Shown: positions 1-36,278, numbered from the stretch's first letter. The stretch: DNA of 36,278 nt from a bacterium (GCA_030615855.1 JAUWYL010000013.1:1-36278), one strand, 5' to 3'. Numbers and translations: made by a program. The notes: a model not told the origin generated them from the sequence alone.

Positions 1-813
1 TTACAGTATCTGGGCAATGTAGAGAGGGTGGCCTTAGCAAAGGCCGAGCTGATGTATACCCTGGGGAAGGATGATGTTGCCATTTTAAATATCGATGACC
101 CCTATGTACGGGATATGAGGAAGAAAATAAGGGCAAGAATAATCACCTATGGCATAAGGAGAAGAGTCCAGGTCAAGGCCCAGAAAATTGAGAACCTAAG
201 AGAGGAAGGGATGAAGTTTACCTTAGGGATAGAGAAAGGGGACTTCCCCCTTCACCTAAGATGTCTCGGTTATCACAATATATATAATGCCCTGGCGGCG
301 GCAGCGGCTACCCATGCCTTAGGCATGAAGAAAGAGATGATCCAAGAAGGACTCTCCCAATTCCAACCCCTGGTAGGAAGGATGAGAATAATGAGGATGA
401 GGGGTCTCACCATTCTCGACGACACCTACAACGCCTCTCCCAAGTCTTTTATCGCCGCCATCGAGACCTTGAGAGACCTCTCTCCAAAGGGGAGGAAGAT
501 ACTGGTGACCGGAGACATGTTAGAATTGGGAGAGAGGGCTCCCCTAGCCCATAAAGAGACCGGAATATATGTTGCTCATTCAGGAATAGATACCCTCATC
601 ACCTGTGGGGGTCTGGCAGGATACATCGCCCAGGGGGCGATAAGGGCGGGAATGGAAAAGAGAAGAATAGTCTCTTGCCAGAATAAAAGGGAGACCGGCG
701 ATAAGCTACTCTCCCTCGCTAAAGAGGGGGACACCATTCTCATTAAGGGCTCCCACGCCACAGGAATGGAAGAAATCATAAAAAAGTTGAAGAGCAAATA
801 TATCCCAAAGTAA
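1..813 (+). CDS. murF: UDP-N-acetylmuramoyl-tripeptide--D-alanyl-D-alanine ligase (5' truncated by window)
   Basis: Frame open from base 1; motifs HNIYNALAA, DDTYNASP, GDMLELG, ILIKGSH; directly upstream of mraY. Confidence 0.95.
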   Translation, partial: LQYLGNVERVALAKAELMYTLGKDDVAILNIDDPYVRDMRKKIRARIITYGIRRRVQVKAQKIENLREEGMKFTLGIEKGDFPLHLRCLGYHNIYNALAAAAATHALGMKKEMIQEGLSQFQPLVGRMRIMRMRGLTILDDTYNASPKSFIAAIETLRDLSPKGRKILVTGDMLELGERAPLAHKETGIYVAHSGIDTLITCGGLAGYIAQGAIRAGMEKRRIVSCQNKRETGDKLLSLAKEGDTILIKGSHATGMEEIIKKLKSKYIPK

Positions 814-990
814 CCAGTAACCAGTTAACAGTAACCAGTTTTTTTACTATGAACTGTTCACTGTAAACCCCGTTAGACTTTTTAGAAAAAGTTATTGCCA
901 ATTCTTAGGGCTCAGTAGAATAATAACAGTTATATAACCGATTGAAAAAGTTTTTAGCCAAAAGTCTTACGGGGTAAACTGTAAACTAAT
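810..990. repeat. Inverted pair of degenerate heptamer arrays (GTAACCA-type / ACTGTAA-type), interrupted by a MITE-like element
   Basis: gtaacca gtaacca gttaaca gtaacca at 810-837; actatga actgttc actgtaa [element] actgtaa downstream. Confidence 0.85.
868..974. mobile_element. MITE-like element, CCCCGTTAGA family, 107 bp
   Basis: TIR ccccgttagactttt / aaaagtcttacgggg (14/15); flanked by TAAA at 864-867 and 975-978. Confidence 0.75.
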
Positions 991-1011
991 ACCACCTTAA
1001 AGGAGGCACAA

Positions 1012-2112
1012 ATGCTCTATCAATTGCTCATTCGCTTTAAAGACCTACATATCGTCTTCAACGTCTTTCGCTATATCACAGTCCGCGCCGGCCTTGCGGC
1101 TCTAACTGCTCTTCTAGCGAGCATTATCTTTGGACCTCTGATCATCAAGAGATTGAAGAGACTAAGGACCTCCCAGAAAGCAGTAGAGGATGAGAAGTAT
1201 CCCATCCTCTATCGTCTCCATCGGGAGAAGTCAGGCACTCCTACCATGGGTGGTCTTTTAATCCTGGGCGCCATCCTCCTCGCCTGTCTCTTATGGGCCG
1301 ACCTGGGGAATAGGTTCGTCCAACTCATACTCTTCGCCACTCTTTGGCTGGGGACCTTGGGCTTCATTGATGATCTCTTGAAGATTAAGAAGAAAAGCAC
1401 AGAGGGCCTGAGACCCCTGGTCAAGTTAGGAGGACAGATCGCCTTAGGATTCATGATCGGCCTCTATCTCTTTCGCCACCCCTTAATCCCGGAATATGGG
1501 ACCTGCCTCACCGTCCCCTTCTTCAAGAACGTCCTACCCGATCTGGGCTGGCTCTATATCCCCTTCGCCATCTTGGTCATCGTGGCCTCCTCCAATGCGG
1601 TCAACCTGACCAATGGGCTGGATGGATTGGCCATAGGAAGCCTCTTAATCGCGGGGGGGGCCTTCGCTGGACTCTCTTATGTCACTGGCCATAGCGGAAT
1701 GGCAAAATATTTGAATATCTTGCATATGTCTGGAGCAGGGGAGCTCACCATATTCTGTTCTGCCCTAGTAGGGGCGGGATTGGGATTTCTATGGTTCAAT
1801 GCCTATCCTGCCCAGGTGATCATGGGGGATACTGGGTCCCTGGCCTTAGGGGGAGCCTTGGGTACTATCGCCATTCTCATCAAGAAAGAGATCATCCTCT
1901 TGATCGTGGGAGGGCTTTTCGTCTTAGAGGCCCTCTCGGTCATCATCCAGGTAGCCTCCTATAAAATGCGCAAGAAGAGGGTCTTTCTCATGACCCCTCT
2001 TCATCATCACTTCGAGCTCTTAGGATGGAAGGAACCTAAGATAATAATCCGCTTCTGGATCATTGCCATCATCTTCGCCTTGTTAAGCCTGGGAACCCTG
2101 AAACTAAGATAG
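1012..2112 (+). CDS. mraY: Phospho-N-acetylmuramoyl-pentapeptide transferase
   Basis: KSGTPTMGG, GFIDD, NAVNLTNGLDGL, MGDTGS, PLHHHFE motifs; polytopic membrane protein; AGGAGG SD at 1001-1006. Confidence 0.97.
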   Translation: MLYQLLIRFKDLHIVFNVFRYITVRAGLAALTALLASIIFGPLIIKRLKRLRTSQKAVEDEKYPILYRLHREKSGTPTMGGLLILGAILLACLLWADLGNRFVQLILFATLWLGTLGFIDDLLKIKKKSTEGLRPLVKLGGQIALGFMIGLYLFRHPLIPEYGTCLTVPFFKNVLPDLGWLYIPFAILVIVASSNAVNLTNGLDGLAIGSLLIAGGAFAGLSYVTGHSGMAKYLNILHMSGAGELTIFCSALVGAGLGFLWFNAYPAQVIMGDTGSLALGGALGTIAILIKKEIILLIVGGLFVLEALSVIIQVASYKMRKKRVFLMTPLHHHFELLGWKEPKIIIRFWIIAIIFALLSLGTLKLR

Positions 2113-2116
2113 CCGA

Positions 2117-2200
2117 GGAAAGTGGGAAAGTGGGAAAGTGAGAGTCAAACCGGTCAACTGGTAAACCGGCAAACTGGCTAACTGGCAAACCGTCAAACTG
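2117..2200. repeat. Two octamer tandem arrays (GGAAAGTG x3; AAACCGGT/AAACTGGC-type x~7)
   Basis: ggaaagtgggaaagtgggaaagtg then aaaccggtcaactggtaaaccggcaaactggctaactggcaaaccgtcaaactg. Confidence 0.85.
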
Positions 2201-2209
2201 AAAGTAGCT

Positions 2210-3550: not shown

Positions 3551-3636
3551 ATCACAAATCGCAAACAAGATGAAAGCATATCAGAATAGACGCCAGACAA
3601 GCTGGCTAAATTCTTCGCGATGCTCTGAATGCAGCA

Positions 3637-3820
3637 AATCAGTGGGCAGAATATCAGAACATCAGAAAATTCTTCTTTCAAGCCTGATATCCTGATCTTC
3701 TGATACCCTCCCTTCTGATACCCTGATTCTCTGATCTGCTTATTTCCTTTTGGGGTATGGGGCATTAAAAATTTTATTGGGAATTAGAAATTGGTAATTG
3801 GAAATTATTGGAAAAATTGA
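3637..3820. repeat. Inverted octamer arrays (ATCAGAAY-type / CTGATNYY-type) followed by a GAAATTG-type heptamer array
   Basis: cagaatatcagaacatcagaa vs cctgatatcctgatcttctgatacc...ctgattctctgat; then attgggaattagaaattggtaattggaaatt. Confidence 0.8.
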
Positions 3821-3828
3821 GGTAGTCA

Positions 3829-5037
3829 ATGAAAAGAATCTCTTCCCATCTGGGACTCTTTCTAATAACCCTGGCCCTGATAAGCATAGGGATCATCATG
3901 GTCTATAGTGCCAGCGCCATCCTCTCCTTGGAGAGGTATAATGACCCCTATTTCTTTTTGAAGCGCCAGCTGGCTTGGGTCCTTTTGGGCCTTTCTGGGA
4001 TGCTTATCGCCGCAAGGATTAACTACCGTGCCCTACCCAAGCTATTAAAGCCTGCACTCTTCCTTACTCTTTGCTTACTCATCATGGTCCTCTTTCCCCA
4101 GTTTGGGAAGGAGATCGCTGGTGCCCGGAGGTGGCTCAAGATAGGAGACTTCACCCTTCAGCCTTCAGAGCTGGCCAAGCTCATCCTCATCCTCTATATG
4201 GCAGATACCCTCTCCAGAAAGAAAGAGAAGATAAAGAGCTTTGCTTATGGTTTCCTCCCCCCGCTTATCATCCTGGGGGCCATCTTTATCCTCATCCTCC
4301 TCCAGCCAGATTTAGGAACTGCCCTCATAATCCTGGTGGTTATTCTGGGGATGCTCTTTGTCTCTGGGGTGCGCTTGAAGTATCTCTTCTCCCTATTCCT
4401 CATTGCCCTCCCCAGCATCTGGCTCTTAATCAACAAGGTCGGTTATAGAAAGAGAAGGATCCTGGCCTTCCTCGATCCCTGGGGCGATCCTCGGGGCTAT
4501 GGCTTCCAGATCATCCAGTCCCTTCTCGCCTTAGGGTCGGGGGGGATCTTCGGTCGGGGTTTAGGAGAGGGAACCCAGAAGCTCTTCTACCTTCCTGCTC
4601 CCCATACCGACTTCATCTTCGCCATACTGGGTGAGGAGCTTGGGTTCTTGGGGGGGATAGCGGTCATCATTCTCTTTGGGGCATTCATCTATTCTGGGGC
4701 CAGGATCGCTCGCCGGGCCCCGGACCTCTTCGGTAGCCTCCTGGCCTTGGGGATAACCACCTGGATCGGACTACAGGCCATGATCAATATCGGGGTAGCC
4801 ACGGGAACCCTGCCCACCAAAGGGATACCCCTGCCCTTCATAAGCTTCGGTGGCTCCTCCCTGGTCTTCTCTTTAATCGGAGTGGGAATCCTCTTGAGCA
4901 TCTCCCTACGCAGCCATAGGTCGCCGACGCTCTCCATCCTCCGAAACAAAGCTTCTGCGGAGGACGGGCATGGCTTTGGTCACTTACGCTCCAGAGTTTC
5001 AGCGACGGGGCGCGACGGAGCGAGGCAGAAGAGATGA
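3829..5037 (+). CDS. ftsW: Peptidoglycan glycosyltransferase FtsW, with palindrome-derived C-terminal extension
   Basis: MVYSAS, GARRWL, QPSELAK, QPDLGTA, LPAPHTDFIF, KGIPLPFISFGGSS; position between murD and murG. Confidence 0.96.
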   Translation: MKRISSHLGLFLITLALISIGIIMVYSASAILSLERYNDPYFFLKRQLAWVLLGLSGMLIAARINYRALPKLLKPALFLTLCLLIMVLFPQFGKEIAGARRWLKIGDFTLQPSELAKLILILYMADTLSRKKEKIKSFAYGFLPPLIILGAIFILILLQPDLGTALIILVVILGMLFVSGVRLKYLFSLFLIALPSIWLLINKVGYRKRRILAFLDPWGDPRGYGFQIIQSLLALGSGGIFGRGLGEGTQKLFYLPAPHTDFIFAILGEELGFLGGIAVIILFGAFIYSGARIARRAPDLFGSLLALGITTWIGLQAMINIGVATGTLPTKGIPLPFISFGGSSLVFSLIGVGILLSISLRSHRSPTLSILRNKASAEDGHGFGHLRSRVSATGRDGARQKR

Positions 5038-6158: not shown

Positions 6159-7525
6159 AGAGAATCCACTTCATCGGCATTGGGGGAGCAGGGATGAGCG
6201 GCATGGCAGAACTCTTATTCAATCTGGGCTATAAGGTTACTGGTTCAGATATCGCAGAGAGCCCGGTAACGAAGAGGCTTAAAGATTTGGGAATAAAGGT
6301 CTATCTCGGCCATAGAAGTTCCCAGATCGGCCCCTGTGATGTAGTAGTTACCTCTAGTGCCATCCCTCCCAGCAATCCAGAGGTAAGGGCTGCGGTAGCG
6401 GCTAAGATACCGGTCATCCCCAGGGCGGTGATGCTTGCCGAACTGATGAGGATGAAGGAGGGGATCGCCATCGCCGGTACCCACGGGAAGACGACCACCA
6501 CCGCCATGGTGGCCAGGGTACTGGCCAAGGGAGGCCTGGATCCCACCTTCGTCATTGGGGGAATATTGAATAGGACGAGAAGTTCGGCCAAGCTGGGCAA
6601 AGGGGATTTTCTGGTGGCCGAGGCGGATGAATCGGATGGCTCCTTTCTTCATCTCTCTCCAGCCATGGCAATCGTCACCTCTATCGACGAGGACCATCTG
6701 GACTACTATGGCACACTTTCCAGGCTAAAAGAGACCTTCCTGGAGTTCATCAATAAGGTCCCCTTCTATGGCCTGGCTATACTCTGTTCTGACGATCCCA
6801 ATATCCGGGATTTCCTTCCTCGGGTGAAAAAGAGGTATCTCACCTATGGTCTGAAGGGACCAGCGGAGCTCATAGCCCAGAGAATAAAGAGGACGAAAAG
6901 GGGATTGGTAGAATTTACTGTCATCTATCACCAGAAGAATTTGGGAAGGATAACCCTGGGCCTTCCCGGTATCCATAACGTTCAAAATAGCCTGGCAGCT
7001 ATTGGGGTGGGTCTGGAGCTGGGCATCGACTTTGCTAATATCCGGAAGGCACTGAAGGATCTCAAAGGAGTAGAGAGGAGATTAGAAATCAAGGGGGAGA
7101 AAGAATCCATCCTGGTCATCGATGACTATGCCCACCATCCTACAGAAATAAGGGCGGTACTCGCCACCATTAAGGGGAGGTATCCAGGGAGAAGGGTAGT
7201 AGGCGTCTTCCAGCCCCATCGCTATACTAGAACCAGGGGTCTACTAAAAAGTTTTGCCGCCTGTTTTAAAGGTCTGGATATCCTGATCCTCGCTAAGATC
7301 TATCCTGCGGGTGAGAAGCCCATCCCGGGAGTAAAGACGAAGAACCTACTTCCCCTCATGGCTAAAAGAAAGAGGCCAAGGGTGAGATATATTGCTTCTT
7401 TGGAGAAAATAGTTAAGTATCTTCTAAAAATATTAGAGCCCAATGATTTACTTCTTACTTTAGGAGCCGGGGATGTCTATTGGGTGGGAGAGGAACTCCT
7501 CAGGAAAATGAAAAATGCAAAATGA
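6143..7525 (+). CDS. murC: UDP-N-acetylmuramate--L-alanine ligase
   Basis: GIGGAGMSG, AGTHGKTTTT, EADESDGSF, DDYAHHPTEI, FQPHRYTR. Confidence 0.97.
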   Translation: MFKKVERIHFIGIGGAGMSGMAELLFNLGYKVTGSDIAESPVTKRLKDLGIKVYLGHRSSQIGPCDVVVTSSAIPPSNPEVRAAVAAKIPVIPRAVMLAELMRMKEGIAIAGTHGKTTTTAMVARVLAKGGLDPTFVIGGILNRTRSSAKLGKGDFLVAEADESDGSFLHLSPAMAIVTSIDEDHLDYYGTLSRLKETFLEFINKVPFYGLAILCSDDPNIRDFLPRVKKRYLTYGLKGPAELIAQRIKRTKRGLVEFTVIYHQKNLGRITLGLPGIHNVQNSLAAIGVGLELGIDFANIRKALKDLKGVERRLEIKGEKESILVIDDYAHHPTEIRAVLATIKGRYPGRRVVGVFQPHRYTRTRGLLKSFAACFKGLDILILAKIYPAGEKPIPGVKTKNLLPLMAKRKRPRVRYIASLEKIVKYLLKILEPNDLLLTLGAGDVYWVGEELLRKMKNAK

Positions 7526-7550
7526 AAAATGAAAAATGTAAAATCAAAAA
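7504..7550. repeat. AAAAATG-type heptamer array at the murC/murB junction
   Basis: gaaaatg aaaaatg caaaatg aaaaatg aaaaatg taaaatc. Confidence 0.9.
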
Positions 7551-8451
7551 TAAGATTAGAGACGAGATTCAGAGGATAGTGAAGGGGGAAGTAAAGTTCG
7601 CTGAGCCTATGAGCAGGCATACCTCTTTTAACATTGGTGGCCCGGCGGACTGCCTCATTGCCCCCCAAGATATAGAGGATATAAGAAAAATTATTCTTTT
7701 TAGCAGAAAGAGAAAGCTCCCCCTAAGAGTAATGGGCCAGGGAACGAACCTCCTGGTCCGGGATAAGGGGGTAAGAGAAATAGTCATAAAGTTAGGGAAA
7801 GGTTTTGAGGGCATCAAGTTTTCAGGAGATCATCTTCTGGCAGGAGCGGCGGTGAGACTCTCTACTTTAATAAAGCTGGCTGCCTCCAAAGGATTGGGGG
7901 GTTTGGAGTTTGCTGTCGGTATCCCGGGGAGTCTGGGTGGGGCCGTGGCAACCAATGCTGGGACAGGAAGCCTTTCCATCTCTCAGAGGCTCATGAGTAT
8001 CCGGGTGATGTCTGAGGAAGGGAGGGTAAAGGATCTGGGAGCGAAGGATTTAAACTTTGGCTACCGTAGGTGCCCCCTGGGGAAGGATAGCATAATCCTA
8101 GATGCCAGACTGAGACTGGAGAGAGCGAAAGAGGAGGAGATCCTGAAGAGAATGAACACTTTCTTAGAGAAGAGAGAGAAGACCCAGCCCCTGGGCGCGG
8201 CCAATGCTGGCTGTATCTTCAAGAACCCAGATCCTAAGACTCCAGCAGCGAGGCTCATTGAAGAGACGGGATTAAAGGGGAAGAGGATAGGAAGGGCCGT
8301 TGTCTCTAAGGTCCATGCCAACTTCATCCTCAACCTGGGAAGAGCAAGAGCAGAGGATGTGCTCACCCTCATGGAAGCAATAAAGGAGGAAGTGAAGGGA
8401 AAGACAGGAATAGATCTGGAGCCAGAGATTGAGATCTGGGGAGAAGACTAA
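7522..8451 (+). CDS. murB: UDP-N-acetylenolpyruvoylglucosamine reductase
   Basis: HTSFNIGGPA, GQGTNLL, GIPGSLGGA, AGCIFKNP (Cys variant of GSxFKNP), HANFILN; start chosen at the ATGA overlap with the murC stop. Confidence 0.95.
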   Translation: MKNEKCKIKNKIRDEIQRIVKGEVKFAEPMSRHTSFNIGGPADCLIAPQDIEDIRKIILFSRKRKLPLRVMGQGTNLLVRDKGVREIVIKLGKGFEGIKFSGDHLLAGAAVRLSTLIKLAASKGLGGLEFAVGIPGSLGGAVATNAGTGSLSISQRLMSIRVMSEEGRVKDLGAKDLNFGYRRCPLGKDSIILDARLRLERAKEEEILKRMNTFLEKREKTQPLGAANAGCIFKNPDPKTPAARLIEETGLKGKRIGRAVVSKVHANFILNLGRARAEDVLTLMEAIKEEVKGKTGIDLEPEIEIWGED

Positions 8452-8456
8452 TAAAA

Positions 8457-9425
8457 ATGCAAAATTTAAAATGCCTGCCTCGTCGGCAGACAGGCAAAAT
8501 GAAAAATGAAAAATTAAAGAGACTTAAGAAGAAAAAAATTGGGGTTTTGATGGGTGGGACCTCTGCTGAGAGGGAGATCTCCCTGAAGACCGGGAAGGCC
8601 ATTCTTCAGGCCCTAAAGAGAAAGGGCTTGAAGGCAATTCCCATAGATGTTGGCAAGGATATCGCTGAGAGACTTCTGGGGGAGAAGATCGAATTGGCCT
8701 TCGTTGCCCTCCACGGGAGGGGAGGGGAGGATGGAACGGTACAGGGCCTGTTAGAATTATTGAAAATCCCCTATACGGGAAGTGGGGTCCTGGCCAGCGC
8801 CCTGGCCCTGAATAAAGTTCAGGCCAAGAAGGTCTTTAAGTTTCACAGACTCCCTGTTCCAAGATTCCAAGTTTTGAAGAAGGGTCAAGGGTCAAGGGTC
8901 AAGGGTCAAGGTTTCTCTTTGCCCCTGGTCATTAAGCCCGCCCGAGAGGGCTCAACCATAGGTCTCTCCATCGTCCACAATAAGAGGGATATAGGGAAGG
9001 CCATGGAGAAGGCCTTCGGGTATGACGAGGAGATCATATTAGAGGAGTATATCGAGGGGAAGGAAGTAACGGTAGGGATAGTGGGGGATGAAGCCCTGCC
9101 GGTCATTGAGATCCGGCCAAAGGATGTCTTCTATACATATGAGGCGAAGTATATTAAGGGACTGACGGACTTCATCATACCGGCCCGCTTATCTAAGAGA
9201 GTCTATTCACAAGTGCAGAGGATTGCCCTTGCTGCTTATCACGCCTTGGGCTGTCGCCACTTCGCCCGGGTGGACATGATAGTGAATAAGAAGAATAAGC
9301 CCTATCTCTTAGAGGTCAATACCATACCAGGCATGACCGCTACCAGCCTCCTCCCCCAGGCAGCAGCGAAAAGGGGGATCGGTTTCGATGATCTAGTGCT
9401 GAAAATTCTGGAATTAGCACTATAA
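8457..9425 (+). CDS. ddl: D-alanine--D-alanine ligase (alternative start 8499)
   Basis: GGTSAEREISL, LHGRGGEDG, KPAREGS, YTYEAKY, EVNTIPGMT. Confidence 0.96.
   Translation: MQNLKCLPRRQTGKMKNEKLKRLKKKKIGVLMGGTSAEREISLKTGKAILQALKRKGLKAIPIDVGKDIAERLLGEKIELAFVALHGRGGEDGTVQGLLELLKIPYTGSGVLASALALNKVQAKKVFKFHRLPVPRFQVLKKGQGSRVKGQGFSLPLVIKPAREGSTIGLSIVHNKRDIGKAMEKAFGYDEEIILEEYIEGKEVTVGIVGDEALPVIEIRPKDVFYTYEAKYIKGLTDFIIPARLSKRVYSQVQRIALAAYHALGCRHFARVDMIVNKKNKPYLLEVNTIPGMTATSLLPQAAAKRGIGFDDLVLKILELAL
8880..8907 (+). repeat. Perfect heptamer tandem repeat (AAGGGTC)x4 inside ddl
   Basis: aagggtc x4, translated as KGQGSRVKG. Confidence 0.95.
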
Positions 9426-9490
9426 AAAGTAGGAGAGGAAGTAAGAAAGTAAGTAATACAAAGTGCAAAATTAGCAATATAAAATGTAAA

Positions 9491-10303
9491 ATGAGAAAGT
9501 ATCGCATTAAAAACCTTAGGATCGCTCCCCGACCTAAACATCTTAAGGGGAAAAGAAAAAGGATAAAGAGTCTCTTTAAGAATACCTTTAGGTTACTTCT
9601 CATCTTAGCCATCGTCTCCTCTCTGGGATTTATGGGGAAGTGGTTCCATGAATTTATTCATACCTCTTCGAGTTTTAATATAGAGGAGATCGATATCCAG
9701 GGATTGAATCGACTGAAGGAGAAAGAGATCCTCAATCTTTTATCTTTAGAGCTTCCCCAGAATATATTCTACATGGATCTGAAAGAAGCAAGAGAGAGGA
9801 TCGAGACCCACCCCCGCATCAAAGAGGCCATCATCCATCGTCGTCCCCCAGGGAGGGTCATCATCCGGGTCAGGGAGAGGGAACCCATGGCCCTCATTAA
9901 TCGGGAAGGGGAGTTCTTGGGGATAGATTCCTCATGCGTTCCCTTTCCCCTGGTGGAGCCCCTAAAGGGAGTTGATCTACCCCTCATCACGGGAATAGAA
10001 TCCGGCGAGATAATCATTGGTGAAGAGTCAAAATCTCCCAATCTCAGGACGGCCCTGGATATCCTGAAGACCATTCTCTCTTTGAAGGGGCACTTATTCA
10101 GCCAGATCTCAGAGATAAATGTGCTAAATGGGATAATCCTCTATACCATAGGGGCCACCCGGGTTCGAATGGGAAAAGAGGACTTCCGGGATCAACTTCT
10201 CAATCTCCAGGGGGTGCTCATTCACCTGAATCAGGAGAAGAGGAGGGCGGAATATATCGATCTAAGATTCAAGAATAAAGTCATTGTCAAAGAACACGAA
10301 TAG
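9491..10303 (+). CDS. ftsQ: Cell division protein FtsQ/DivIB
   Basis: Basic N-terminus, one TM helix, POTRA-like segment, C-terminal YIDLRF; between ddl and ftsA. Confidence 0.9.
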   Translation: MRKYRIKNLRIAPRPKHLKGKRKRIKSLFKNTFRLLLILAIVSSLGFMGKWFHEFIHTSSSFNIEEIDIQGLNRLKEKEILNLLSLELPQNIFYMDLKEARERIETHPRIKEAIIHRRPPGRVIIRVREREPMALINREGEFLGIDSSCVPFPLVEPLKGVDLPLITGIESGEIIIGEESKSPNLRTALDILKTILSLKGHLFSQISEINVLNGIILYTIGATRVRMGKEDFRDQLLNLQGVLIHLNQEKRRAEYIDLRFKNKVIVKEHE

Positions 10304-10398
10304 ACACGAACTGACACGAGAAAAGATAGGAAATGACACACGAAATAACACGAAGAAATTCGTGTGAATTCGTAATAAATTCGCGTGGATTCGTGTAA
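10293..10398. repeat. Inverted ~10-mer arrays (ACACGAA-core / TTCGTG-core)
   Basis: aacacgaatagacacgaactgacacgag...acacgaaataacacgaa vs ttcgtgtgaattcgtaataaattcgcgtggattcgtgt. Confidence 0.85.
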
Positions 10399-10415
10399 TA
10401 TGATAGCGAGGAGAA

Positions 10416-12752: not shown

Positions 12753-12779
12753 AGATTTCTGAAAAAGTCAGAAATCTTT

Positions 12780-12841
12780 GATTACATTGATTAAAAATGA
12801 GATTACACAGATTAGTTATAAATGAGAAAATCTGTGTAATC
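12780..12841. repeat. Inverted 9-mer-type repeat with perfect 13-bp arms
   Basis: gattacacagatt (12801-12813) / aatctgtgtaatc (12829-12841); degenerate extra copy gattacattgatt from 12780. Confidence 0.8.
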
Positions 12842-12887
12842 AGAGGGCTCTGAAGATTTTTTTGAGCCCTTAAGGATGTTACCCCAA

Positions 12888-12920
12888 AGGGGCCCTTGGA
12901 TTCAAGGGCCCCTCTTTTTT
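12888..12920 (+). terminator. Intrinsic terminator downstream of ftsZ
   Basis: 11-bp stem aggggcccttg/caagggcccct, 4-nt loop, followed by ctttttt. Confidence 0.75.
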
Positions 12921-13054
12921 GCAACCGCCCGTTCAGGATCCTGAGGATCCTTCAGGATCTGAAGGACAAAGACGCTAAAATATTCGACATTTGTCGAAGA
13001 TTTTGTTCCGATCTTATCGGAACTCAATTAACTGAAAGACGCAAAAAGAAAATG

Positions 13055-13082
13055 AAAAGGCCCGAGATTCTCGGGCCTTTTT
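13055..13082. terminator. Second, potentially bidirectional intrinsic terminator
   Basis: aaaaggcccgaga-t-tctcgggccttttt. Confidence 0.7.
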
Positions 13083-13114
13083 CTCTTTCGAGGGAAAAAA
13101 GTAAAAAAAAGGAC

Positions 13115-13143
13115 TTGCCCCGTTAGAAATTTTGTGATATCAT
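13115..13143 (+). promoter_or_regulatory. Putative sigma70-type hybrid promoter for dnaE
   Basis: TTGCCC-17 bp-TATCAT with TG extension; the -35 straddles the left junction of a MITE-like element. Confidence 0.45.
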
Positions 13144-13216
13144 TTACTTAGTAGAGACTTTACCAAGCCCCTAATTTTCTCAAGCAGAATTCTGATCGAG
13201 ATAAGTTCTAACGGGG
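13118..13216. mobile_element. MITE-like element, CCCCGTTAGA family, 99 bp
   Basis: TIR ccccgttagaaatt / aagttctaacgggg (13/14); flanks CTTG / CTTA. Confidence 0.75.
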
Positions 13217-13272
13217 CTTAAAATAGAGTTCAACTTCTGATAGAGTAGAAGTTGAAAGCAAGAGGTATCAAA

Positions 13273-16704: not shown

Positions 16705-16729
16705 ATAATTCCACTTAGTATAGTATAAT
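16701..16729 (+). promoter_or_regulatory. Putative sigma70-type promoter for fba-pfk
   Basis: TTGAAT-17 bp-TATAAT overlapping the dnaE stop codon. Confidence 0.6.
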
Positions 16730-16735
16730 AAAATA

Positions 16736-17096
16736 GTAATCAGTGAACGGTGAACTTCGAAGTAACCAGCGAACAGTAGCCAGCGAAACCATAGATTATC
16801 AGAACATCAGACTATCAGAATGAGAATTCAGATGGTCAGAATATCAGATTAGAACATCAGTGCATCCCCGAAGGAAAGCCTCCCCGAAGGACAAGCCTAC
16901 GGGGCAGGTCGGTTTCCAACGGGGCAGGCAGAACATCAGAATAAGAACTCAGAATACCAGATTCATTTTTTTCAATCTGACCCTCTGATAACTGACCTTC
17001 TCCATCTGATAATCTGGTTATCTGATACTCTTCTACTTTTTTACTGTCCCGAAGGGATCCCATTAGGATAAACTGTAAACTGGTTACTGTAAACTA
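16736..17096. repeat. Nested inverted arrays: outer heptamer pair, inner octamer pair, GC-rich inserts
   Basis: gtaatca gtgaacg...gtaacca gcgaaca gtagcca / actgtaa actggtt actgtaa outside; atcagaac-type / ctgataay-type inside. Confidence 0.85.
16865..16928. mobile_element. Two nested copies of a mini element TCCCCGAAGGA...ACGGGGCAGG
   Basis: Left end at 16865-16875 and 16881-16891; right end at 16899-16908 and 16919-16928 (order L-L-R-R). Confidence 0.6.
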
Positions 17097-17986: not shown

Positions 17987-18150
17987 ACGCAGATGTCGGA
18001 TGCGCTTCGCTGGCATCCGAGAGAGCATGAATATCAAGCAATGACCGCAGATCAAAACGCAGATGACCGCAGACAAAAATCAGCGGCTGACGCCTCAAGG
18101 CAAACAAAGTGCGTTAAGTATCAGTGTACTATGTCAGCGATAATCAGCGT
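17986..18150. repeat. CGCAGAT-core / ATCAGCG-core arrays with an inserted hairpin
   Basis: aacgcagat, gaccgcagat, aacgcagat, gaccgcagac vs atcagcg, atcagtg, gtcagcg, atcagcg; hairpin tcggatgc/gcatccga at 17996-18020. Confidence 0.75.
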
Positions 18151-18164
18151 TTGAGGGGGGAGAT

Positions 18165-25318: not shown

Positions 25319-25347
25319 TTGAAATCAAAAATAATTTATGGTAGGAT
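25319..25347 (+). promoter_or_regulatory. Putative sigma70-type promoter for bioY
   Basis: TTGAAA-17 bp-TAGGAT with TG extension. Confidence 0.5.
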
Positions 25348-25366
25348 GTAATAGGAGGTACAAGAG

Positions 25367-25972: not shown

Positions 25973-26176
25973 ACCATTTCTCTTACGCTCCAGTCAAACT
26001 CTTTGAGTCACTAAATAAAAAGAATCAAGATATCCCTAGAAATTTTGAGTTCCTAAGGTTTTGCCACAAATCTTGTCCGATCGGACACCATTTGTGGCAT
26101 TTTTATTTTGAGATATCAGAACTTCAATAAGCAAAAGACGGCGGAGAGCGAAGCGCGCCGTCATTTTGCCAAAAAT

Positions 26177-26205
26177 TTGCAAAAGGGTCTTATCTATGCT
26201 ATACT
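26177..26205 (+). promoter_or_regulatory. sigma70-type promoter for leuS
   Basis: TTGCAA-17 bp-TATACT with TG extension, 21 nt before the ATG. Confidence 0.65.
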
Positions 26206-26226
26206 AACTAAATTAATGGAGGCAGA

Positions 26227-28749
26227 ATGGGAAGATACTATCCTTTCCAGAAGATTGAGAAAAAATGGCAGGATTACTGGAGGAAGAGGAACCAGTTTAA
26301 GGTCAAGGAAGACCCCAAGAAGAAAAAGTACTATCTTCTTGAGATGTTTCCTTATCCATCTGGAAAGCTCCATATGGGCCATATGAGAAATTACGTGGTA
26401 GGGGATACCCTGGCTCGCTTCTTGAGGATGAAAGGATATAACACATTATACCCTATGGGCTATGACTCCTTCGGCCTTCCGGCAGAGAATGCTGCTCTTC
26501 AGAATAGAACCCATCCTGCAGAGTGGACGAAGAGATGCATCTCTGATATGAGGAAGCAGCAGGAGAAGATGGGATTATCCTATGACTGGAATAGGCTGAT
26601 CATCACCTGTCAGCCAGACTATTATAAATGGAATCAGTGGATCTTCTTGAAGTTCTATGAGAGGGGATTGGCCTATAAGAGGAAGGCGCCCATCAACTGG
26701 TGCCCCTCTTGTAAAACAGTCTTAGCCAATGAACAGGTTGAGGAGGGGAAGTGCTGGAGATGCGAATCAAGGGTTGAGATAAGAGACTTAGAGCAGTGGT
26801 TCTTCAAGATTACAGAATATGCTCAGGAATTATTAGAAGATTTAGAGAGGTTGGAGGGATGGCCGGAGAGGGTGAAACTGATGCAGGAGAACTGGATCGG
26901 AAGATCAACTGGAACTCTGGTCAACTTCAGACTCAAGGATAGCGATAAGATCCTCCCCATCTTTACTACCAGGCCAGATACTCTCTATGGAGTGACCTTC
27001 ATGACCATGGCCTGTGAACATCCCTTGGTTTTAGAATTGGTTGAGGGTACCAAATATGAGAAAGAAGTTAGGGAATTTATAAATAGAGTAATCTTGGAGG
27101 ATAGATTTACCAGAACGGCAGAGGATAAGGAGAAGGAAGGGGTCTTCATTGGTAGGTGCGCCATCAATCCCCTAACCAATGAAGAGATTCCCGTCTATGT
27201 GGCCAACTTCGTTCTCTTAGAGTATGGTACCGGGATTATCATGGCCGTTCCTGCCCATGATCAAAGAGACTTCGAGTTCGCCCAGAAATATAACATCCCC
27301 ATAAAGCAAGTCATTCAGAAGTCAGATATCAGATATCAGATATCTGAATTGACTGAGGCTTATATTGACCCTGGAATCATGGTAGATTCTGCTCAATTCA
27401 CTGGTCTGAAATCAGAAGAGGCCAAGGGGAAGATTACTACCTATCTAAAAGAGAAGGGGTGGGGGAAGAGGGCGGTTCAGTATAAGTTGCGCGATTGGCT
27501 CATATCCCGCCAGAGATACTGGGGAACACCCATTCCTATCATCTACTGCAAGAAGTGTGGAGTAGTTCCTGTTCCGAGAGAGGAACTACCGGTAGAATTA
27601 CCGCAGGATGTTAAATTTACCGGAAAAGGTAACCCCCTAAAGAAATGTCAAGAATTTGTAAATTGCAGATGTCCTAAGTGTAAGGGGAAGGCCAGAAGGG
27701 AGACGGATACCATGGATACCTTCGTTGACTCCTCCTGGTACTTCTCTAGATATTGTAGCCCGGATTATGATAAGGAACCATTTGATAAAAAGAGGATAGA
27801 TTACTGGATGCCCGTTGATCAGTATATTGGGGGAATAGAGCACGCCATTATGCATCTTTTATATGCCCGATTCTTTACCAAGGCCTTGAGAGACATAAAA
27901 TTATATAAGATCGATGAGCCCTTCAAGAGACTATTCTGTCAGGGGATGGTGGTAAAGGATGGGGCCAAGATGTCCAAGTCAAAGGGGAATGTGGTCTCTG
28001 TTGACGAGATAACGAATAAATACGGTGCAGATACTGCCCGGCTATTCATTCTCTTTGCCTCTCCTCCAGAAAAGGACCTGGAATGGAGTGTGGAAGGAGT
28101 AGAAGGGTCATTTAGGTTTTTGAATAGGGTATGGAGATTAATTAATGATTTTAATTTCCAATTTCCCCCGGCCTCGCCAAGCGAAGCGGGGCGGGCAATT
28201 TCTAATTTACAAGGTAAACCCGAAACCCGAAACCCGAAACCCGAAACTGAGTTAAAAAAGATTACTCATAAAACGATTAAGAAGGTGACTGAGGATATTG
28301 AAAAGAGGTTCCATTTCAATACCGCCATCTCTGCCATTATGGAGCTGGTCAATGCTATACAAAACTCAAAACTCAAAACTCAAAACTCAAAACTCCGAAC
28401 TCCGAACTCCGAACTCCGAAAAGCTATTGAGACCGTAGTGCTATTACTATCTCCCTTTGCTCCCCATATCTGTGAAGAGATCTGGGAGAACCTGGGTAAT
28501 AAACCGAGTATCGGCCAAAAGGATTGGCCAACCTATGATCCAAAAGCAATTATAGAAGAGGAGATTCTAATCGTCATTCAAGTAGATGGAAAACTCCGAA
28601 GCAGAATAAAGGTCCCTATAAATTCAAGCGATGACGAAGTAAAAGAGAAGGCCTTAGCGGATGACAGAATAAAGAAATTTATTTCGGAAAAAAAGATCAA
28701 AAGAGTCATTTTAGTGCCCAAGAAACTGGTGAATATCGTCACCAGATAG
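26227..28749 (+). CDS. leuS: Leucine--tRNA ligase, with several repeat-derived insertions
   Basis: MFPYPSGKLHMGH, FTTRPDT, DWLISRQRYWG, GGIEHA, KMSKS. Confidence 0.98.
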   Translation: MGRYYPFQKIEKKWQDYWRKRNQFKVKEDPKKKKYYLLEMFPYPSGKLHMGHMRNYVVGDTLARFLRMKGYNTLYPMGYDSFGLPAENAALQNRTHPAEWTKRCISDMRKQQEKMGLSYDWNRLIITCQPDYYKWNQWIFLKFYERGLAYKRKAPINWCPSCKTVLANEQVEEGKCWRCESRVEIRDLEQWFFKITEYAQELLEDLERLEGWPERVKLMQENWIGRSTGTLVNFRLKDSDKILPIFTTRPDTLYGVTFMTMACEHPLVLELVEGTKYEKEVREFINRVILEDRFTRTAEDKEKEGVFIGRCAINPLTNEEIPVYVANFVLLEYGTGIIMAVPAHDQRDFEFAQKYNIPIKQVIQKSDIRYQISELTEAYIDPGIMVDSAQFTGLKSEEAKGKITTYLKEKGWGKRAVQYKLRDWLISRQRYWGTPIPIIYCKKCGVVPVPREELPVELPQDVKFTGKGNPLKKCQEFVNCRCPKCKGKARRETDTMDTFVDSSWYFSRYCSPDYDKEPFDKKRIDYWMPVDQYIGGIEHAIMHLLYARFFTKALRDIKLYKIDEPFKRLFCQGMVVKDGAKMSKSKGNVVSVDEITNKYGADTARLFILFASPPEKDLEWSVEGVEGSFRFLNRVWRLINDFNFQFPPASPSEAGRAISNLQGKPETRNPKPETELKKITHKTIKKVTEDIEKRFHFNTAISAIMELVNAIQNSKLKTQNSKLRTPNSELRKAIETVVLLLSPFAPHICEEIWENLGNKPSIGQKDWPTYDPKAIIEEEILIVIQVDGKLRSRIKVPINSSDDEVKEKALADDRIKKFISEKKIKRVILVPKKLVNIVTR
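28361..28416 (+). repeat. Heptamer array (AAAACTC)x5 + (CGAACTC)x3 inside leuS
   Basis: Perfect units; translated QNSKLKTQNSKLRTPNSELR. Further leuS arrays: (AAACCCG)x4 at 28216-28243 and TCAGATA-type at 27315-27349. Confidence 0.95.
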
Positions 28750-28825
28750 TAAGTAACAAGTAGCAATTGTTCAATATTAATTGTTCAATGTTCATTGTAA
28801 ATTGTAAGCTATCAGGGGGAATAAA

Positions 28826-29386: not shown

Positions 29387-29393
29387 GACACCT

Positions 29394-31256: not shown

Positions 31257-31277
31257 AGCATCGGAACTTCAATGGAA

Positions 31278-31350
31278 CCACGGATTAAATGGATTGGACA
31301 GATTTTTAAAGAGACTACTAATCTGTGTAAATCTGTGAAATCTGTGGTTA
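31278..31350. repeat. Inverted 9-mer-type arrays (CACGGATT-type / AATCTGTG x3)
   Basis: ccacggattaaatggattggacagatt vs aatctgtgtaaatctgtgaaatctgtgg. Confidence 0.8.
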
Positions 31351-31372
31351 CTATTTTGGAATGGAGAGATAA

Positions 31373-32896
31373 ATGTATCATCCTTCATTGAAAGAGTTTA
31401 TTAGGAAGGCTAAAGAGGGGAATCTGATCTCGGTTTACAGAGAAGTGTCAGCGGATTTAGAGACTCCAATATCCATCTTCAGCAAGATTGAGACCGGAAA
31501 ATATGCCTTTCTTTTAGAAAGCGTAGAAAGAGGAAAGAAAATCAGTCGTTACTCCCTGCTGGGTTCTGACCCTTCTCTCATCTTCAAGATTAAGGGTAAG
31601 AGGATAGAGATTATTAGAAGAAATAGAAAAGAAGACTATGAAACACCTAATCCTTTAGAGGCCTTGAAGAAGTTATTGCTCAGTTACAAAACGGTGAAGG
31701 ATGAGAACCTACCGGGGTTCGTTGGGGGTGCGGTGGGCTACCTCGGTTATGACATCGTGCGCCTCTTTGAAGAATTACCGGATGAAAATCCTGACGATCT
31801 CAATCTACCCGATGCCCTATTCTTCTTTGTTTCCACATTTCTTCTCTTTGACCATCTAAAGCATAGAATCAAGGTAGTATCCTGTGCCCCAATTAAGGGG
31901 AATCCTAAAAGAGCATATCAAGAAGCGATTAGAAAGATTGAAAATTTAATAAATCAGCTGGAGAAACCAACCCCCCATCACCGATCATCCATCCTCCGTA
32001 GCAGTTGCACTGCTACTGCGGAGGATGGACCGGTCACTGCGGGCACCCCGACAGAGGTCGGGGTCGGATCACCGATTACTATAAAGTCCAATCTCAGTAA
32101 GGAAGAATTCAAGAGAATAGTAGAGAGGATCAAAGAATACATTAAGGCAAAAGAGGTGCGACAGGTCATCATCTCCCAGAGGTTAGAGACCAGGATCAAC
32201 GTTCCTCCTTTTAATATTTATAGAGCGCTGCGCACCATCAATCCCTCCCCTTATATGTTCTATCTGAAGTGTGAAGATCTGAGATTGATCGGCGCCTCTC
32301 CTGAAAACTTGGTGAAGTTTGAAGGCAGAAAAGTGATAACCAGGCCGGTAGCCTCAACCAGACCGAGGGGGAAGGATGCCCGGGAAGATGGGAGAATGGC
32401 TCAAGAACTCTTTCATAGCTCCAAAGAGAGATCGGAGCATCTGATGCTCGCTCGTTTATGCCAGAAGGAACTGGAAGAGATATGCCAGAGGAATAGTATA
32501 AAGATGGAGAGGGAGATGGAGATTGAAAGATATTCCCATGTGATGCATCTGGTCTCCACCATATCGGGAAGACTTAAAAAGAATAAGGATGCCTTTGACC
32601 TTATCTATACCTGTTTTCCTTCAGCCACTATTACTGGTGTTCCAAAGAAAAGGGCCATGGAGATTATTGAAGAGGTAGAATCAATAAAGAGGGGTCCTTA
32701 TACCGGGGCTATAGGGGTCTTAAGTTTCTCTGGCGATCTGGACCTGGGCATCATAGTTAGAAGTATCATCATTAAGGGAAAACGGGCCTATATCCCGGTG
32801 GGATGTGGGATTGTAGCGGCCTCTATTCCGGAGAGGGAATATCAGGAGACCAGAGATAAGGCCCAGGCCCAGATTGAGGCCATAAATGCTGCTTAG
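31373..32896 (+). CDS. Anthranilate synthase component I-like (chorismate-binding) protein, divergent
   Basis: DLETP, FLLESVE, GGAVGYLGYD, NPSPYM, YSHVMHLVS, EYQETRDKA; several canonical motifs altered. Confidence 0.85.
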   Translation: MYHPSLKEFIRKAKEGNLISVYREVSADLETPISIFSKIETGKYAFLLESVERGKKISRYSLLGSDPSLIFKIKGKRIEIIRRNRKEDYETPNPLEALKKLLLSYKTVKDENLPGFVGGAVGYLGYDIVRLFEELPDENPDDLNLPDALFFFVSTFLLFDHLKHRIKVVSCAPIKGNPKRAYQEAIRKIENLINQLEKPTPHHRSSILRSSCTATAEDGPVTAGTPTEVGVGSPITIKSNLSKEEFKRIVERIKEYIKAKEVRQVIISQRLETRINVPPFNIYRALRTINPSPYMFYLKCEDLRLIGASPENLVKFEGRKVITRPVASTRPRGKDAREDGRMAQELFHSSKERSEHLMLARLCQKELEEICQRNSIKMEREMEIERYSHVMHLVSTISGRLKKNKDAFDLIYTCFPSATITGVPKKRAMEIIEEVESIKRGPYTGAIGVLSFSGDLDLGIIVRSIIIKGKRAYIPVGCGIVAASIPEREYQETRDKAQAQIEAINAA

Positions 32897-32908
32897 GAAG
32901 TTATTGGA

Positions 32909-33901: not shown

Positions 33902-34085
33902 TCGGTAAACGGTGACCGGATTACGAGTAACGGGTAACGAGTTACGGGTGACGGGGAAAGTAGGAAACGGAGAAGAAGAGAAATGGGGAAAGGGAAAAGT
34001 CAAATTGCAAATTTCAAAGTGCAAAATGAAAAATGGAGAATTAGGTGATTAACTGTTTTCAATTTTTACTTTTTACTTTTTACTT
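33891..34085. repeat. Stack of different short tandem arrays filling the holA-murJ spacer
   Basis: gtgaaca/gtaaacg-type, acgagta/acgggta-type, ggaaa-core purine-rich units, caaattg/caaaatg-type, then (ttttact)x3. Confidence 0.85.
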
Positions 34086-34105
34086 GTTAAATGAAGCGAG
34101 GGACA

Positions 34106-35659: not shown

Positions 35660-35660
35660 G

Positions 35661-35798
35661 TCCCGCACCTTTTATCATATTTTATACTTATCTTTTAAGA
35701 AGTAAAAGAAAAAGTCCTGTGAACCCCGCCCCTTCCTTGCCTGTGGTTGAGATTTGGGGAGAAGAAGGAGCGGGGTGAATCATAAAAAAGGTGCGGGA
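35661..35798. mobile_element. MITE-like element (138 bp) containing a second nested element
   Basis: Perfect 13-bp TIR tcccgcacctttt / aaaaggtgcggga; TGAG direct repeat at 35657-35660 and 35799-35802. Confidence 0.8.
35724..35775. mobile_element. Nested MITE-like element (52 bp)
   Basis: TIR ccccgccccttc / gaaggagcgggg (11/12); TGAA direct repeat at 35720-35723 and 35776-35779. Confidence 0.75.
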
Positions 35799-36278
35799 TG
35801 AGATTAGAAGAAAGAATAAGATCCCTTCCCCAGAGCTGTGGGGTCTATCTATTCAAGGACACTTCGGGAAAGATCCTCTATGTAGGCAAGGCAGCCAACC
35901 TCGCCAAGCGCGTGAAGAGTTACTTCCAGGTGCCCTCTCCCACTCCCAAGCTGGGCGCCCTAATCTCTCAGATCGGGGATCTAGATTATAAAATTACGGA
36001 CAATGAGGTAGAGGCTTTACTTTTAGAATGTAATCTCATTAAGGAATACCATCCTAGATATAACGTAAGCCTTAAGGACGACAAGAAATACCCTTATCTT
36101 AAGATAACCAAGGAGGACTTTCCTAGAATATTCGTTACCCGCAAGGTAAAGAACGATGGAGCAAAATACTTCGGTCCCTATACCAATGCCAAAGCCATCC
36201 GCCAAACCCTAAAATTCCTAAGGACCCTCTTTCCCATCAGGACCTGCAAGAGGAAGATTGGCAAAAAGCCCTTGAAAC
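35798..36278 (+). CDS. uvrC: Excinuclease ABC subunit C (3' truncated by window; not in the supplied ORF track)
   Basis: Own translation: MRLEERIRSLPQSCGVYLFKD...ILYVGKAANLAKRVKSYF...EALLLECNLIKEYHPRYNVSLKDDKKYPY (GIY-YIG domain of UvrC). Confidence 0.95.
   Translation, partial: MRLEERIRSLPQSCGVYLFKDTSGKILYVGKAANLAKRVKSYFQVPSPTPKLGALISQIGDLDYKITDNEVEALLLECNLIKEYHPRYNVSLKDDKKYPYLKITKEDFPRIFVTRKVKNDGAKYFGPYTNAKAIRQTLKFLRTLFPIRTCKRKIGKKPLK

Follow-up and report, generated by a model that had tools for sequence, protein, structure and literature searches.

The DNA analysed here, hereafter the window, is the entire 36,278-bp contig C43 of the draft genome of an uncultured bacterium (G000; 1.375 Mb, 45 contigs, rated 93.6% complete), and our subject is the short-repeat and hairpin material that fills the spacers between its genes. 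Nearly all window genes lie on the + strand. A cell-wall and cell-division cluster (murF, mraY, murD, ftsW, murG, murC, murB, ddl, ftsQ, ftsA, ftsZ), of a kind that in bacteria usually ranks with the most compact and best conserved gene arrays, is followed by dnaE, fba and pfk, then by genes for a PHP-domain protein, an AP endonuclease and a pseudopilin; SPFH (- strand), DUF1284, MetA-like and BioY genes also occur, and the distal part comprises leuS, lptE, a permease-EIIA fusion, a trpE-like gene, holA, murJ and the start of uvrC. Rfam and ARAGORN returned two tRNAs and no other matches in the window. We propose, as a rather probable explanation, that the spacer fill represents the nested build-up of three or more kinds of tiny insertions, for the most part non-coding, with slippage on top: array-armed cassettes (layer 1), mini-elements with terminal inverted repeats (TIRs; layer 2), and short GC-rich hairpins (layer 3).

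The comparison set comprised five related assemblies, two of the same genus (G001, G002) and three of the same family (G003, G004, G005), with completeness among the family genomes of 53-94%; MurG of G002 is 95% identical to that of G000. Beyond its family, the kin of G000 share only its domain, and a LeuS-based scan reached distant phyla at 66% identity or less. Contigs from public runs (X1, X2, X5), possibly of related strains, were used to show that particular forms exist, and no more; run-contig joints with sides of <30 letters or at repeated families (e.g. 16827 to 16949), which possibly belong to other loci or organisms, were excluded. A search for RNA runs containing the stretch listed none.

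Results

Tandem arrays are concentrated in co-directional spacers

The 56 rows reported by Tandem Repeats Finder (TRF) in the window merge into 46 arrays covering 1402 bases, compared with 5.5 ± 2.5 arrays (max 13) in 50 dinucleotide-preserving shuffles, and rows of period 7 or 8 number 23, compared with 1.6 (max 5) in such shuffles. Arrays occupy 757 of 3529 spacer bases (21%) and 645 of 32,749 gene bases (2%). The genome-wide count that a first-pass annotation of the window had proposed gives 1479 arrays against 230-302 in three first-order Markov shuffles; the dominant periods are 7 (480 rows, against 28-41 in those shuffles), 8 (347) and 10 (246). Canonical unit families are numerous (172 7-mers and 183 8-mers), the commonest 7-mer family, AACCAGT, accounting for 39 rows. 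On crude calls of genes as open reading frames (ORFs), which underlie all genome-wide gene and spacer figures given here, arrays cover 16.5% of intergenic and 1.8% of coding bases, and 18.5% of co-directional spacers as opposed to 6.5-6.9% of divergent or convergent ones. Of 847 co-directional spacers, 404 contain 14 or more array bases.

Neighbouring arrays form inverted pairs in 31 of 1205 cases, where about 7 are expected, under a strict and conservative consensus-unit test; in the window such arm pairs lie at 809-868, 3647-3735, 10294-10396 and 16761-17095. Among the 19 window spacers of at least 40 nt, 11 fold with a z-score of -1.88 or lower, and 10 with one at or below -2. The first-pass annotation, which had described spacers filled by arrays of many unit families, often as an A/G-rich left arm and a complementary right arm, is thus upheld as regards the arrays and the inverted arms, and fails as regards polarity: most pairs have the purine on the 5' side in 244 spacers and on the 3' side in 231, and purine polarity by spacer half (first versus second) gives 276 of 541. 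Selection on stems at the RNA level was likewise considered and rejected. Folding favours the sense over the antisense strand in 332 of 541 spacers, and the reverse holds in 202, a bias that we attribute to composition because dinucleotide shuffles give 341/195 and 329/207.

Orthologous junctions differ among close relatives

Alignment of the window to congeneric G002 yields 19 blocks and is broken at 12 of the 26 junctions from murD to uvrC, with three further breaks inside ftsW and leuS. At murD/ftsW, the genes overlap by ATGA in G002, G001 and G004, and are separated by 63 bp in G003 and by 278 bp in G000; contigs of all three public runs join 3531 to 3829. The ftsA/ftsZ junction is empty in G000 (9 nt), is filled in G002 by a 76-bp hairpin of the AGTAACC family, and in G004 holds a 549-bp insert in which a GxxExxY gene (TIGR04256, E = 8.7e-26) lies between CACAGAT and ATCTGTG arrays. 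At fba/pfk, the stop codon is directly followed by GAGG in G002 and G001, while G000 has a gene-less fill of ~170 bp, G003 a tRNA between two small hairpins, and G004 a GxxExxY cassette whose arms (xCAGAT/ATCTG) are of the same type as those of the gene-less fill in G000. The G003 tRNA (L106, G003:C64, ~5019-5174) has a CAT anticodon by eye, and its two hairpins are of the form ACGCGAAT...ATTCGCG.

Elsewhere, the lptE/permease spacer measures 7 nt in G000 and ~150 bp in G002, the dnaE/fba spacer 338 nt and 21 nt, and the ftsQ/ftsA spacer 93 nt and 181 nt, respectively. At mraY/murD, AACATTG-family arms stand in G001 and G003 in place of the G000 fill. At murJ/uvrC, where G002 has ATGA and G003 GTGA, G000 has ATGAG, a 133-bp element, and ATGAG again. 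The AAAATGN array at murC/murB is identical in G002, shorter in G003, and joined in G004 by a hairpin with GATCAGG arms; at murB/ddl, the copy number of these units varies among G000, G002, G001, G004 and G003, and an X2 contig carries an additional AAAATGA at 9480. The AAAATGN units at 7505-7551 and 8455-8525 each hold ATG and often TGA, and the arrays lie exactly on two stop/start junctions, an arrangement that looks like tandem multiplication of the ATGA junction itself. We also observed that the permease/trpE-like interval, 99 nt in G000 (31260-31360), spans ~2.5 kb in G002 (L099, G002:C66, 564-3116). To judge from these alignments, the fill turns over quickly, with close relatives carrying no fill or a different one.

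Spacer segments recur at unrelated loci

When 19 spacers were compared with the genome by BLAST, whole segments of 60-235 bp were found again at other loci at 83-99% identity, and the recurring segments are ORF-less. The composite fill E2 (elements with an E number are listed in Table 1) has three other copies (207-235 bp, 83-93% identity), two on C35 and one on C25; the two-tier palindrome of dnaE/fba has six (87-94% identity); and E1, with ends CCCCG...CGGGG, has a second copy with a matching flanking arm at C45:33930-34078 (88% identical). Parts of the ftsZ/dnaE spacer (fold z = -9.3) recur on C40, C44 and C9, and parts of the holA/murJ spacer on C45, C40 and C30. Eight other G000 copies of E5 each lie between CGCAGAT-type units, with many more in G001-G005; E7 has five other G000 copies and dozens of matches in G001-G005; and E9 has two full and three partial other copies in G000. 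Families of window elements match, at 85-99% identity, numerous unrelated contigs in each of the five relatives. Taken together, these comparisons support the view that the fill is deposited DNA, beyond locally grown repeats.

E5 and E7 have a common design, with a GC stem of 7-8 bp, a GCGCTTCGC-like loop and a tail of ~25 nt, and nearly all copies are flanked by one 7-nt direct repeat (CGCAGAT for E5, ATTTTRA for E7). These repeats could be either duplicated specific targets or ends of the elements themselves.

Inverted arrays bracket two families of small gene

Cargo genes in G000 comprise six of the GxxExxY family (PF13366) and eight full-length members of the four-helix-bundle family (PF05635), besides two partial PF05635 fragments at contig ends; both cargo types are present in all six family genomes. 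The window holds no PF05635 or GxxExxY ORF, and its copies are gene-less. By eye, most of the 14 cargo genes lie between a tandem array and its reverse complement, placed after the stop codon of the gene upstream and ahead of the ribosome site of the gene downstream; all 14 genes are co-oriented with the upstream gene. The arm unit varies from cassette to cassette (ACACGAA, CACGGATAG, TAGTCAT, GGAGTAAG, ATGCGTTA, GATCAGG, AAGGAGT). Near-identical GxxExxY proteins at C30:3069 and C45:36814 both have CACGGATTAG arms, and therefore arms and cargo appear to have been copied together. Complementary termini that form a long stem occur in the gene-bearing cassettes and in the window hairpins at 10294-10396 (the ftsQ/ftsA spacer, fold z = -4.1) and 16761-17095, and the ACACGAA arms of the former also bracket a GxxExxY gene at C30:58355. 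The suggestion that the inverted arrays may be empty ends of small cassettes, made from the window alone, holds up in the light of these genes and of the G004 cassettes at ftsA/ftsZ and fba/pfk; the accompanying statement, that similar arrays flank four-helix-bundle or GxxExxY genes in other genomes, was correct.

A survey of genes between paired arms, also proposed at first pass, placed 34 of 1229 G000 genes above the 99th percentile of the null (~12 expected), nine of them among the 14 cargo genes. The flagged genes inspected that encode no four-helix-bundle, GxxExxY or GIY-YIG protein (e.g. groES, ruvX-like and acetate kinase genes) are ordinary genes between two separate hairpins of the same family, and further cargo types were rejected on this ground. 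In the six genomes together, the flanks of 28 of 45 cassettes score above the 95th percentile of mismatched flank pairs, and those of 15 above the 99th, a null that is inflated by arm families in common; the set leaves out partial or stop-containing family matches, and three cassettes without a downstream flank (L125, L137, L140) were dropped from this test.

Arm period differs with cargo. A period of at least 9 nt was found in 15 of 19 GxxExxY and 4 of 28 four-helix-bundle cassettes (Fisher p = 1.3e-5, inflated by orthologous cassettes among kin; one cassette with N in its flank was dropped), and in 10 of 13 and 3 of 21, respectively, when G000 is set aside. The ftsQ/ftsA (ACACGAA) and fba/pfk (CGCAGAT) arms of the window are of the GxxExxY type, and its AGTAACC and CAGAATATC arms of the 7-8-nt type.

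One four-helix-bundle protein of G000 matches PDB entries 2gsc (E = 4e-7) and 2rld (E = 8e-7), and the GxxExxY protein had no match in PDB by sequence. Among the matches listed, papers that name GxxExxY do not, in the portions available, present it as a mobile cassette. Some GxxExxY ORFs appear to begin in the left arm (MQTDTDEK... and MKTTEDTEYTEDK...; L105 G004:C150 and C30:23924), the array units being translated as an N-terminal extension. Contigs C6 and C7 open with an identical partial four-helix-bundle fragment (C6:1-123 and C7:1-123, 27.2 bits each); a repeated cassette probably breaks the assembly at these two starts.

TIR mini-elements with duplicated flanks at stop/start overlaps

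Nineteen paired CCCGCACC-type TIR elements of 45-372 bp, including E9, were found in G000. Their flanks agree in at least four of five letters in 14 of 19, perfectly in seven, under a scoring that allowed four offset choices and for which about one chance match is expected; a TGA/TCA core (RTGAR or its complement) is present in 11 of the 14 flank-duplicated elements. The empty site of E9 in G002 is a single ATGA. Four G002 copies lie in RTGA overlaps, and a 116-bp subtype lies in GTYRAC, with duplication. E9 holds a nested inner CCCCGCCCC-type element that one 80-bp G002 copy lacks, which implies that the nesting came from a separate event. The 372-bp element (C35:39165-39536) has E9-like ends, an analogous inner hairpin, and an ORF for a ~90-aa GIY-YIG nuclease.

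Hairpins inside arrays and in frame within proteins

GC-rich hairpins and TIR elements sit within arrays, in agreement with the first reading of the window: E1 in a TAAACTG arm, E5 between CGCAGAT units, and the ~8473-8495 hairpin, with E9 as a nested case. The ~8473-8495 hairpin (~21 nt) is found in G000 only, the same murB/ddl array in G002 lacking it. In the two-tier palindrome (16761-17095), which has a T-rich loop between its arms, GC-rich hairpins are inserted at ~16865-16928 and ~17047-17068; in the fba/pfk fill, complementary ATCAGCG-type units follow 3' of E5.

The same kind of material occurs in frame. A CCATCCTCCG...CGGAGGAYGG hairpin has five copies: ftsW, the trpE-like gene and a C26 gene each carry one in frame, and two lie between genes, as at C44:10574. 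The ftsW insert is missing in G002, G001, G004 and G003, and one public-run contig (X2) joins 4920 to 5024, i.e. without it; the insert in the trpE-like gene, of 14 residues, is missing in G002 and in a G000 paralogue. The (AAGGGTC)4.6 loop of Ddl has a degenerate counterpart in G002 and a longer, different one in G004. Three loops of LeuS are specific to the lineage: they vary among G000, G002, G001 and G005, and distant LeuS (L018, L019) lack them; at the (TCAGATA)3.3 loop the G002 protein is 18 residues longer, and LeuS of G001 and G005 carries GKPANRQT repeats, a peptide that would fit the AAACCGGC-type 8-mer unit of the G000 mraY/murD spacer. In-frame invasion of ftsW, leuS, the trpE-like gene and a ddl loop, as initially read, is thus borne out; the hairpin in the annotated 5' end of ddl is more likely part of the leader, with the true start downstream of it.

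Table 1. Repeat arrays, hairpins and mini-elements of the window (positions along the 36,278-bp contig)
Position	Strand	Feature	Flanks or internal detail
809..867	+	hairpin with inverted heptamer arms, AGTAACC family: (AGTAACC)4.4, T-run, ACTGTTCACTGTAAA	
868..974	.	E1, 107-bp TIR mini-element CCCCGTTAGACTTTT ... AAAAGTCTTACGGGG	within TAAACTG arm, TAAA on both sides
2117..2200	+	mraY/murD spacer fill: (GGAAAGTG)3 and (CAAACCGG/CAAACTGG)n	
3551..3828	+	E2, 278-bp composite murD/ftsW fill	outer AATTGGA-type arms
3578-3634		57-bp sub-element of E2	
3647-3735		inner arms of E2, CAGAATATC / GATATTCTG	
4921..5023	+	~102-nt in-frame insert, ftsW 3' tail	GC-rich hairpin CCATCCTCCG...CGGAGGACGG at 4938-4963
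7505..7551	+	(AAAATGN)6.7 array over murC stop and murB start	
8455..8525	+	murB/ddl (AAAATGN)n array	~21-nt GC-rich hairpin at ~8473-8495
8880..8911	+	perfect (AAGGGTC)4.6 array, translated as Ddl loop KKGQGSRVKGQG	
10294..10396	+	ftsQ/ftsA spacer, inverted arms (ACACGAAA..)n / (..TTCGTGT)n	no cargo gene
12753..13251	+	ftsZ/dnaE spacer: hairpin chain, two terminator-like stems	E1-like TIR pair at 13117-13217
16761..17095	+	dnaE/fba two-tier palindrome	outer AGTAACC / GGTTACT arms, inner CAGAATATC / GATATTCTG arms
17987..18164	+	fba/pfk fill	E5 hairpin element (17987-18052) between CGCAGAT 10-mer units
26103..26167	.	E7, ~60-bp hairpin element GACGGCG..CGCCGTC, E5-like loop	ATTTTRA on both sides
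27322..27344	+	(TCAGATA)3.3 in length-variable LeuS loop	
28216..28420	+	perfect in-frame (AAACCCG)4.6, (CAAAACT)5.1, (AACTCCG)4.3 in two LeuS loops	
31986..32027	+	42-nt in-frame insert SILRSSCTATAEDG, trpE-like gene	hairpin 31993-32024
33923..34089	+	holA/murJ spacer arrays (ACGGGTA)n, (CAAATTG)n, (TTTTTAC)n	
35660..35797	.	E9, 138-bp TIR element TCCCGCACCTTTT ... AAAAGGTGCGGG, murJ/uvrC ATGA overlap	ATGAG duplicated

Discussion

The first-pass annotation had envisaged a single enzyme-driven process, acting in trans, that deposits short DNA at gene junctions. Deposition stands, given that non-coding segments recur in the genome and in five relatives, and that G002 has empty alleles; a single process does not, as there are at least three element classes with different end structures, plus slippage. 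In the explanation we favour, the first layer would consist of palindromic cassettes with inverted tandem arrays for arms. A complete member would hold a single small gene, lacking a promoter and oriented like the host operon, encoding either a PF05635 four-helix-bundle protein (the 23S rRNA intervening-sequence protein) or a GxxExxY PD-(D/E)XK nuclease (TIGR04256), and most copies, all those of the window included, would be gene-less hairpins that may derive from cassettes through cargo loss. The second layer would be the CCCGCACC-type TIR mini-elements, which appear to duplicate 5 bp on insertion, preferably at RTGAR; as this target corresponds to the ATGA/GTGA stop/start overlap, both reading frames would survive, and the GIY-YIG nuclease of the 372-bp element is the likely mobiliser in trans. 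Hairpins of 20-65 bp, GC-rich and apparently landing inside array units, would form the third layer, and those with a length that is a multiple of three may land in surface loops or tails of proteins. Insertion may be driven by the encoded nucleases, either through a cut followed by copying from a filled template or through transposition, and for gene-less copies would be initiated by a nuclease acting in trans. The survivors would be insertions that spare the stop codon and the ribosome site, hence a presumed confinement to gene junctions, and slippage would afterwards alter unit numbers.

The candidates for trans-acting enzymes are the PD-(D/E)XK (GxxExxY) and GIY-YIG nucleases. We favour nuclease-initiated insertion because the sole element-borne enzymes seen are of two nuclease folds, both characteristic of homing endonucleases. 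Searches of the 93.6% complete G000 assembly for Y1 transposase, reverse transcriptase, DDE_Tnp_1, rve and TnpB gave no match, and no multi-copy transposase-like ORF family emerged. MutS (PF00488) was found in none of the six family genomes, at their completeness of 53-94%, and G000 gave no match to MutL (PF01119); mismatch repair may be missing from the lineage, a loss that would relax the barrier to recombination between diverged sequences.

Several points weigh against this explanation. A transposase may possibly have been missed, as the assembly is 93.6% complete and insertion sequences often go unassembled. Nuclease activity and the movement of elements are both deduced from sequence, and we know of no catalytic activity for the four-helix-bundle protein. 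At clean filled/empty pairs the array-armed hairpins lack a flank duplication, and precise loss from an ancestral filled state would produce the same filled/empty pattern. The genome-wide figures depend on crude gene calls; the six family genomes are kin, and counts across them are non-independent. Finally, CAC[AG]GAT as an arm motif specific to GxxExxY cassettes was rejected as weak and post hoc (8 of 20 versus 4 of 28).

Among known systems, a close parallel to the cassettes is provided by the ORF-bearing intervening sequences of 23S rRNA genes (Coxiella burnetii, Leptospira and the S23p of Xanthomonas), as far as these are covered in the part available of PMC4990558. In both, complementary sequences flank a small PF05635 four-helix-bundle gene and pair into a long stem, and the distribution is sporadic. 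Intervening sequences sit in a 23S rRNA helix and are excised by RNase III. The cassettes described here lie instead between operon protein genes, their arms consist of tandemly repeated 7-11-nt units, GxxExxY genes provide a second type of cargo, and most copies are gene-less. No match to large-subunit/23S rRNA was found in the G000 assembly, every copy seen being between or inside protein genes.

The TIR mini-elements resemble bacterial miniature inverted-repeat transposable elements that have an autonomous partner, for example Correia elements and MITEAba12, in that TIRs and a short duplication of the flanks go with the lack of an ORF, a high copy number, and a single longer member that bears a gene. 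In this case the element with ends in common encodes a GIY-YIG protein, which is a candidate for the transposing role; the differences lie in this partner, a ~90-aa GIY-YIG nuclease and not a DDE or other known transposase, and in the preferred target, the RTGAR stop/start overlap. Among the matches listed, there was no bacterial GIY-YIG element with TIRs and flank duplication. Repetitive extragenic palindromes (REP) and their REPIN pairs go with a RAYT-type enzyme, and the corresponding PF01797 Y1 (HUH) transposase had no match in the 93.6% complete G000. Rickettsia palindromic elements are palindromic repeats that lie in frame within conserved protein genes, a likeness that extends to the inserts described here; in contrast to them, the present pieces are much shorter (42-102 nt) or are tandem arrays, and belong to families of intergenic fill.

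Heptamer repeats are the subject of PMC4679880, which in the part available covers short tandemly repeated repetitive (STRR) sequences, long simple-sequence repeats and TAACTGA repeats (Mrazek 2007, as summarised there). As in these, heptamers dominate in G000, and its tandem 5-11-nt units are in excess, mostly intergenic, at times translated, and variable in unit number. The differences from what is summarised there are that unit families number in the hundreds instead of one or few, that arrays are paired as inverted arms, and that, unlike repeats originating in place, arrays recur with their flanks elsewhere, inside longer dispersed segments. Paired octa- and heptanucleotide arrays in Geobacter metallireducens, interpreted as regulator-binding sites (PMC2700814), are similar in having four or five tandem units of 7-8 nt in opposite-strand pairs at tens of loci; cargo genes, filled and empty alleles and nesting, as described here, do not feature in the portion of that paper available to us.

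There are three rival explanations. If arrays arose purely by slipped-strand growth in place, as for STRR and long simple-sequence repeats, with hairpins of local origin and no mobile DNA, then varying unit numbers would be expected, and such variation is indeed seen among relatives at murB/ddl and in the extra AAAATGA of a run contig; the perfect arrays inside genes and the missing MutS and MutL matches point in the same direction. Slippage does not, however, account for composite segments of 60-235 bp that keep their own degenerate unit order at unrelated loci, for a 278-bp fill where three relatives have an ATGA overlap, or for flank duplications at 14 of 19 TIR elements. We regard this explanation as very improbable, and as a sole process slippage is already contradicted. 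An artefact of assembly or binning of a metagenome-assembled genome deserves mention given a 45-contig draft, and given that Logan contigs break at multi-copy elements, and yet independent X1 contigs covering 809-3270 and 13026-16821 show 8 and 0 differences, respectively, G002 has an identical murC/murB array, the element families recur in five other assemblies, and the host genes are all in frame, such that its probability is negligible.

The remaining rival, that the fill consists of host regulatory devices selected junction by junction (terminators, attenuators, RNase III sites, or iterated sites for a global regulator), is less easily dismissed, and we consider it unlikely. It would agree with the denser array cover of co-directional spacers, with the stable folding of 11 of the 19 longer window spacers, and with published proposals for the Geobacter metallireducens arrays (PMC2700814) and the TAACTGA repeats of Beggiatoaceae (PMC4679880), to the extent that these sources were available. 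Against it stand the differences in presence, absence and replacement among congeners inside essential operons, the identical kind of material in frame within proteins, the lack of any sense-strand folding advantage beyond shuffles, and the hundreds of unit sequences. Nested insertion, by comparison, accommodates the non-random excess of arrays, the dispersal of segments, the filled and empty alleles, the nesting and the flank duplications, along with the cassette architecture, the in-frame copies and, through later slippage, the variation in unit number.

A more specific idea, which we offer tentatively and hold to be less probable than not by some distance, is that the arm units are iterons read by the cassette's own protein, which would make the iteron-armed palindromic cassette a distinct class of element. 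The ~10-nt period of GxxExxY arms might then correspond to one helical turn, with four-helix-bundle arms at 7-8 nt. If so, gene-less hairpins in their hundreds would be acted on in trans by a small number of encoded proteins, and the cassettes, together with GIY-YIG mini-elements that home into stop/start overlaps, would remodel both operon junctions and protein loops, in a host with a reduced genome apparently without MutS.

The scale of the phenomenon is considerable, as about half of the co-directional spacers in a 1.4-Mb genome carry fill, the cell-division and cell-wall cluster included. How 23S intervening sequences and four-helix-bundle genes move has been a standing question since the 1990s, according to the part available of PMC4990558. 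The clean pairs of filled and empty alleles reported here tie together heptamer repeats, gene-less intergenic hairpins and 'intervening sequence' genes, and offer many recent events for studying how genes of the intervening-sequence type move. Moreover, essential enzymes of this lineage (LeuS, Ddl, FtsW and the TrpE-like protein) gain and lose loop segments by way of the same fill material.

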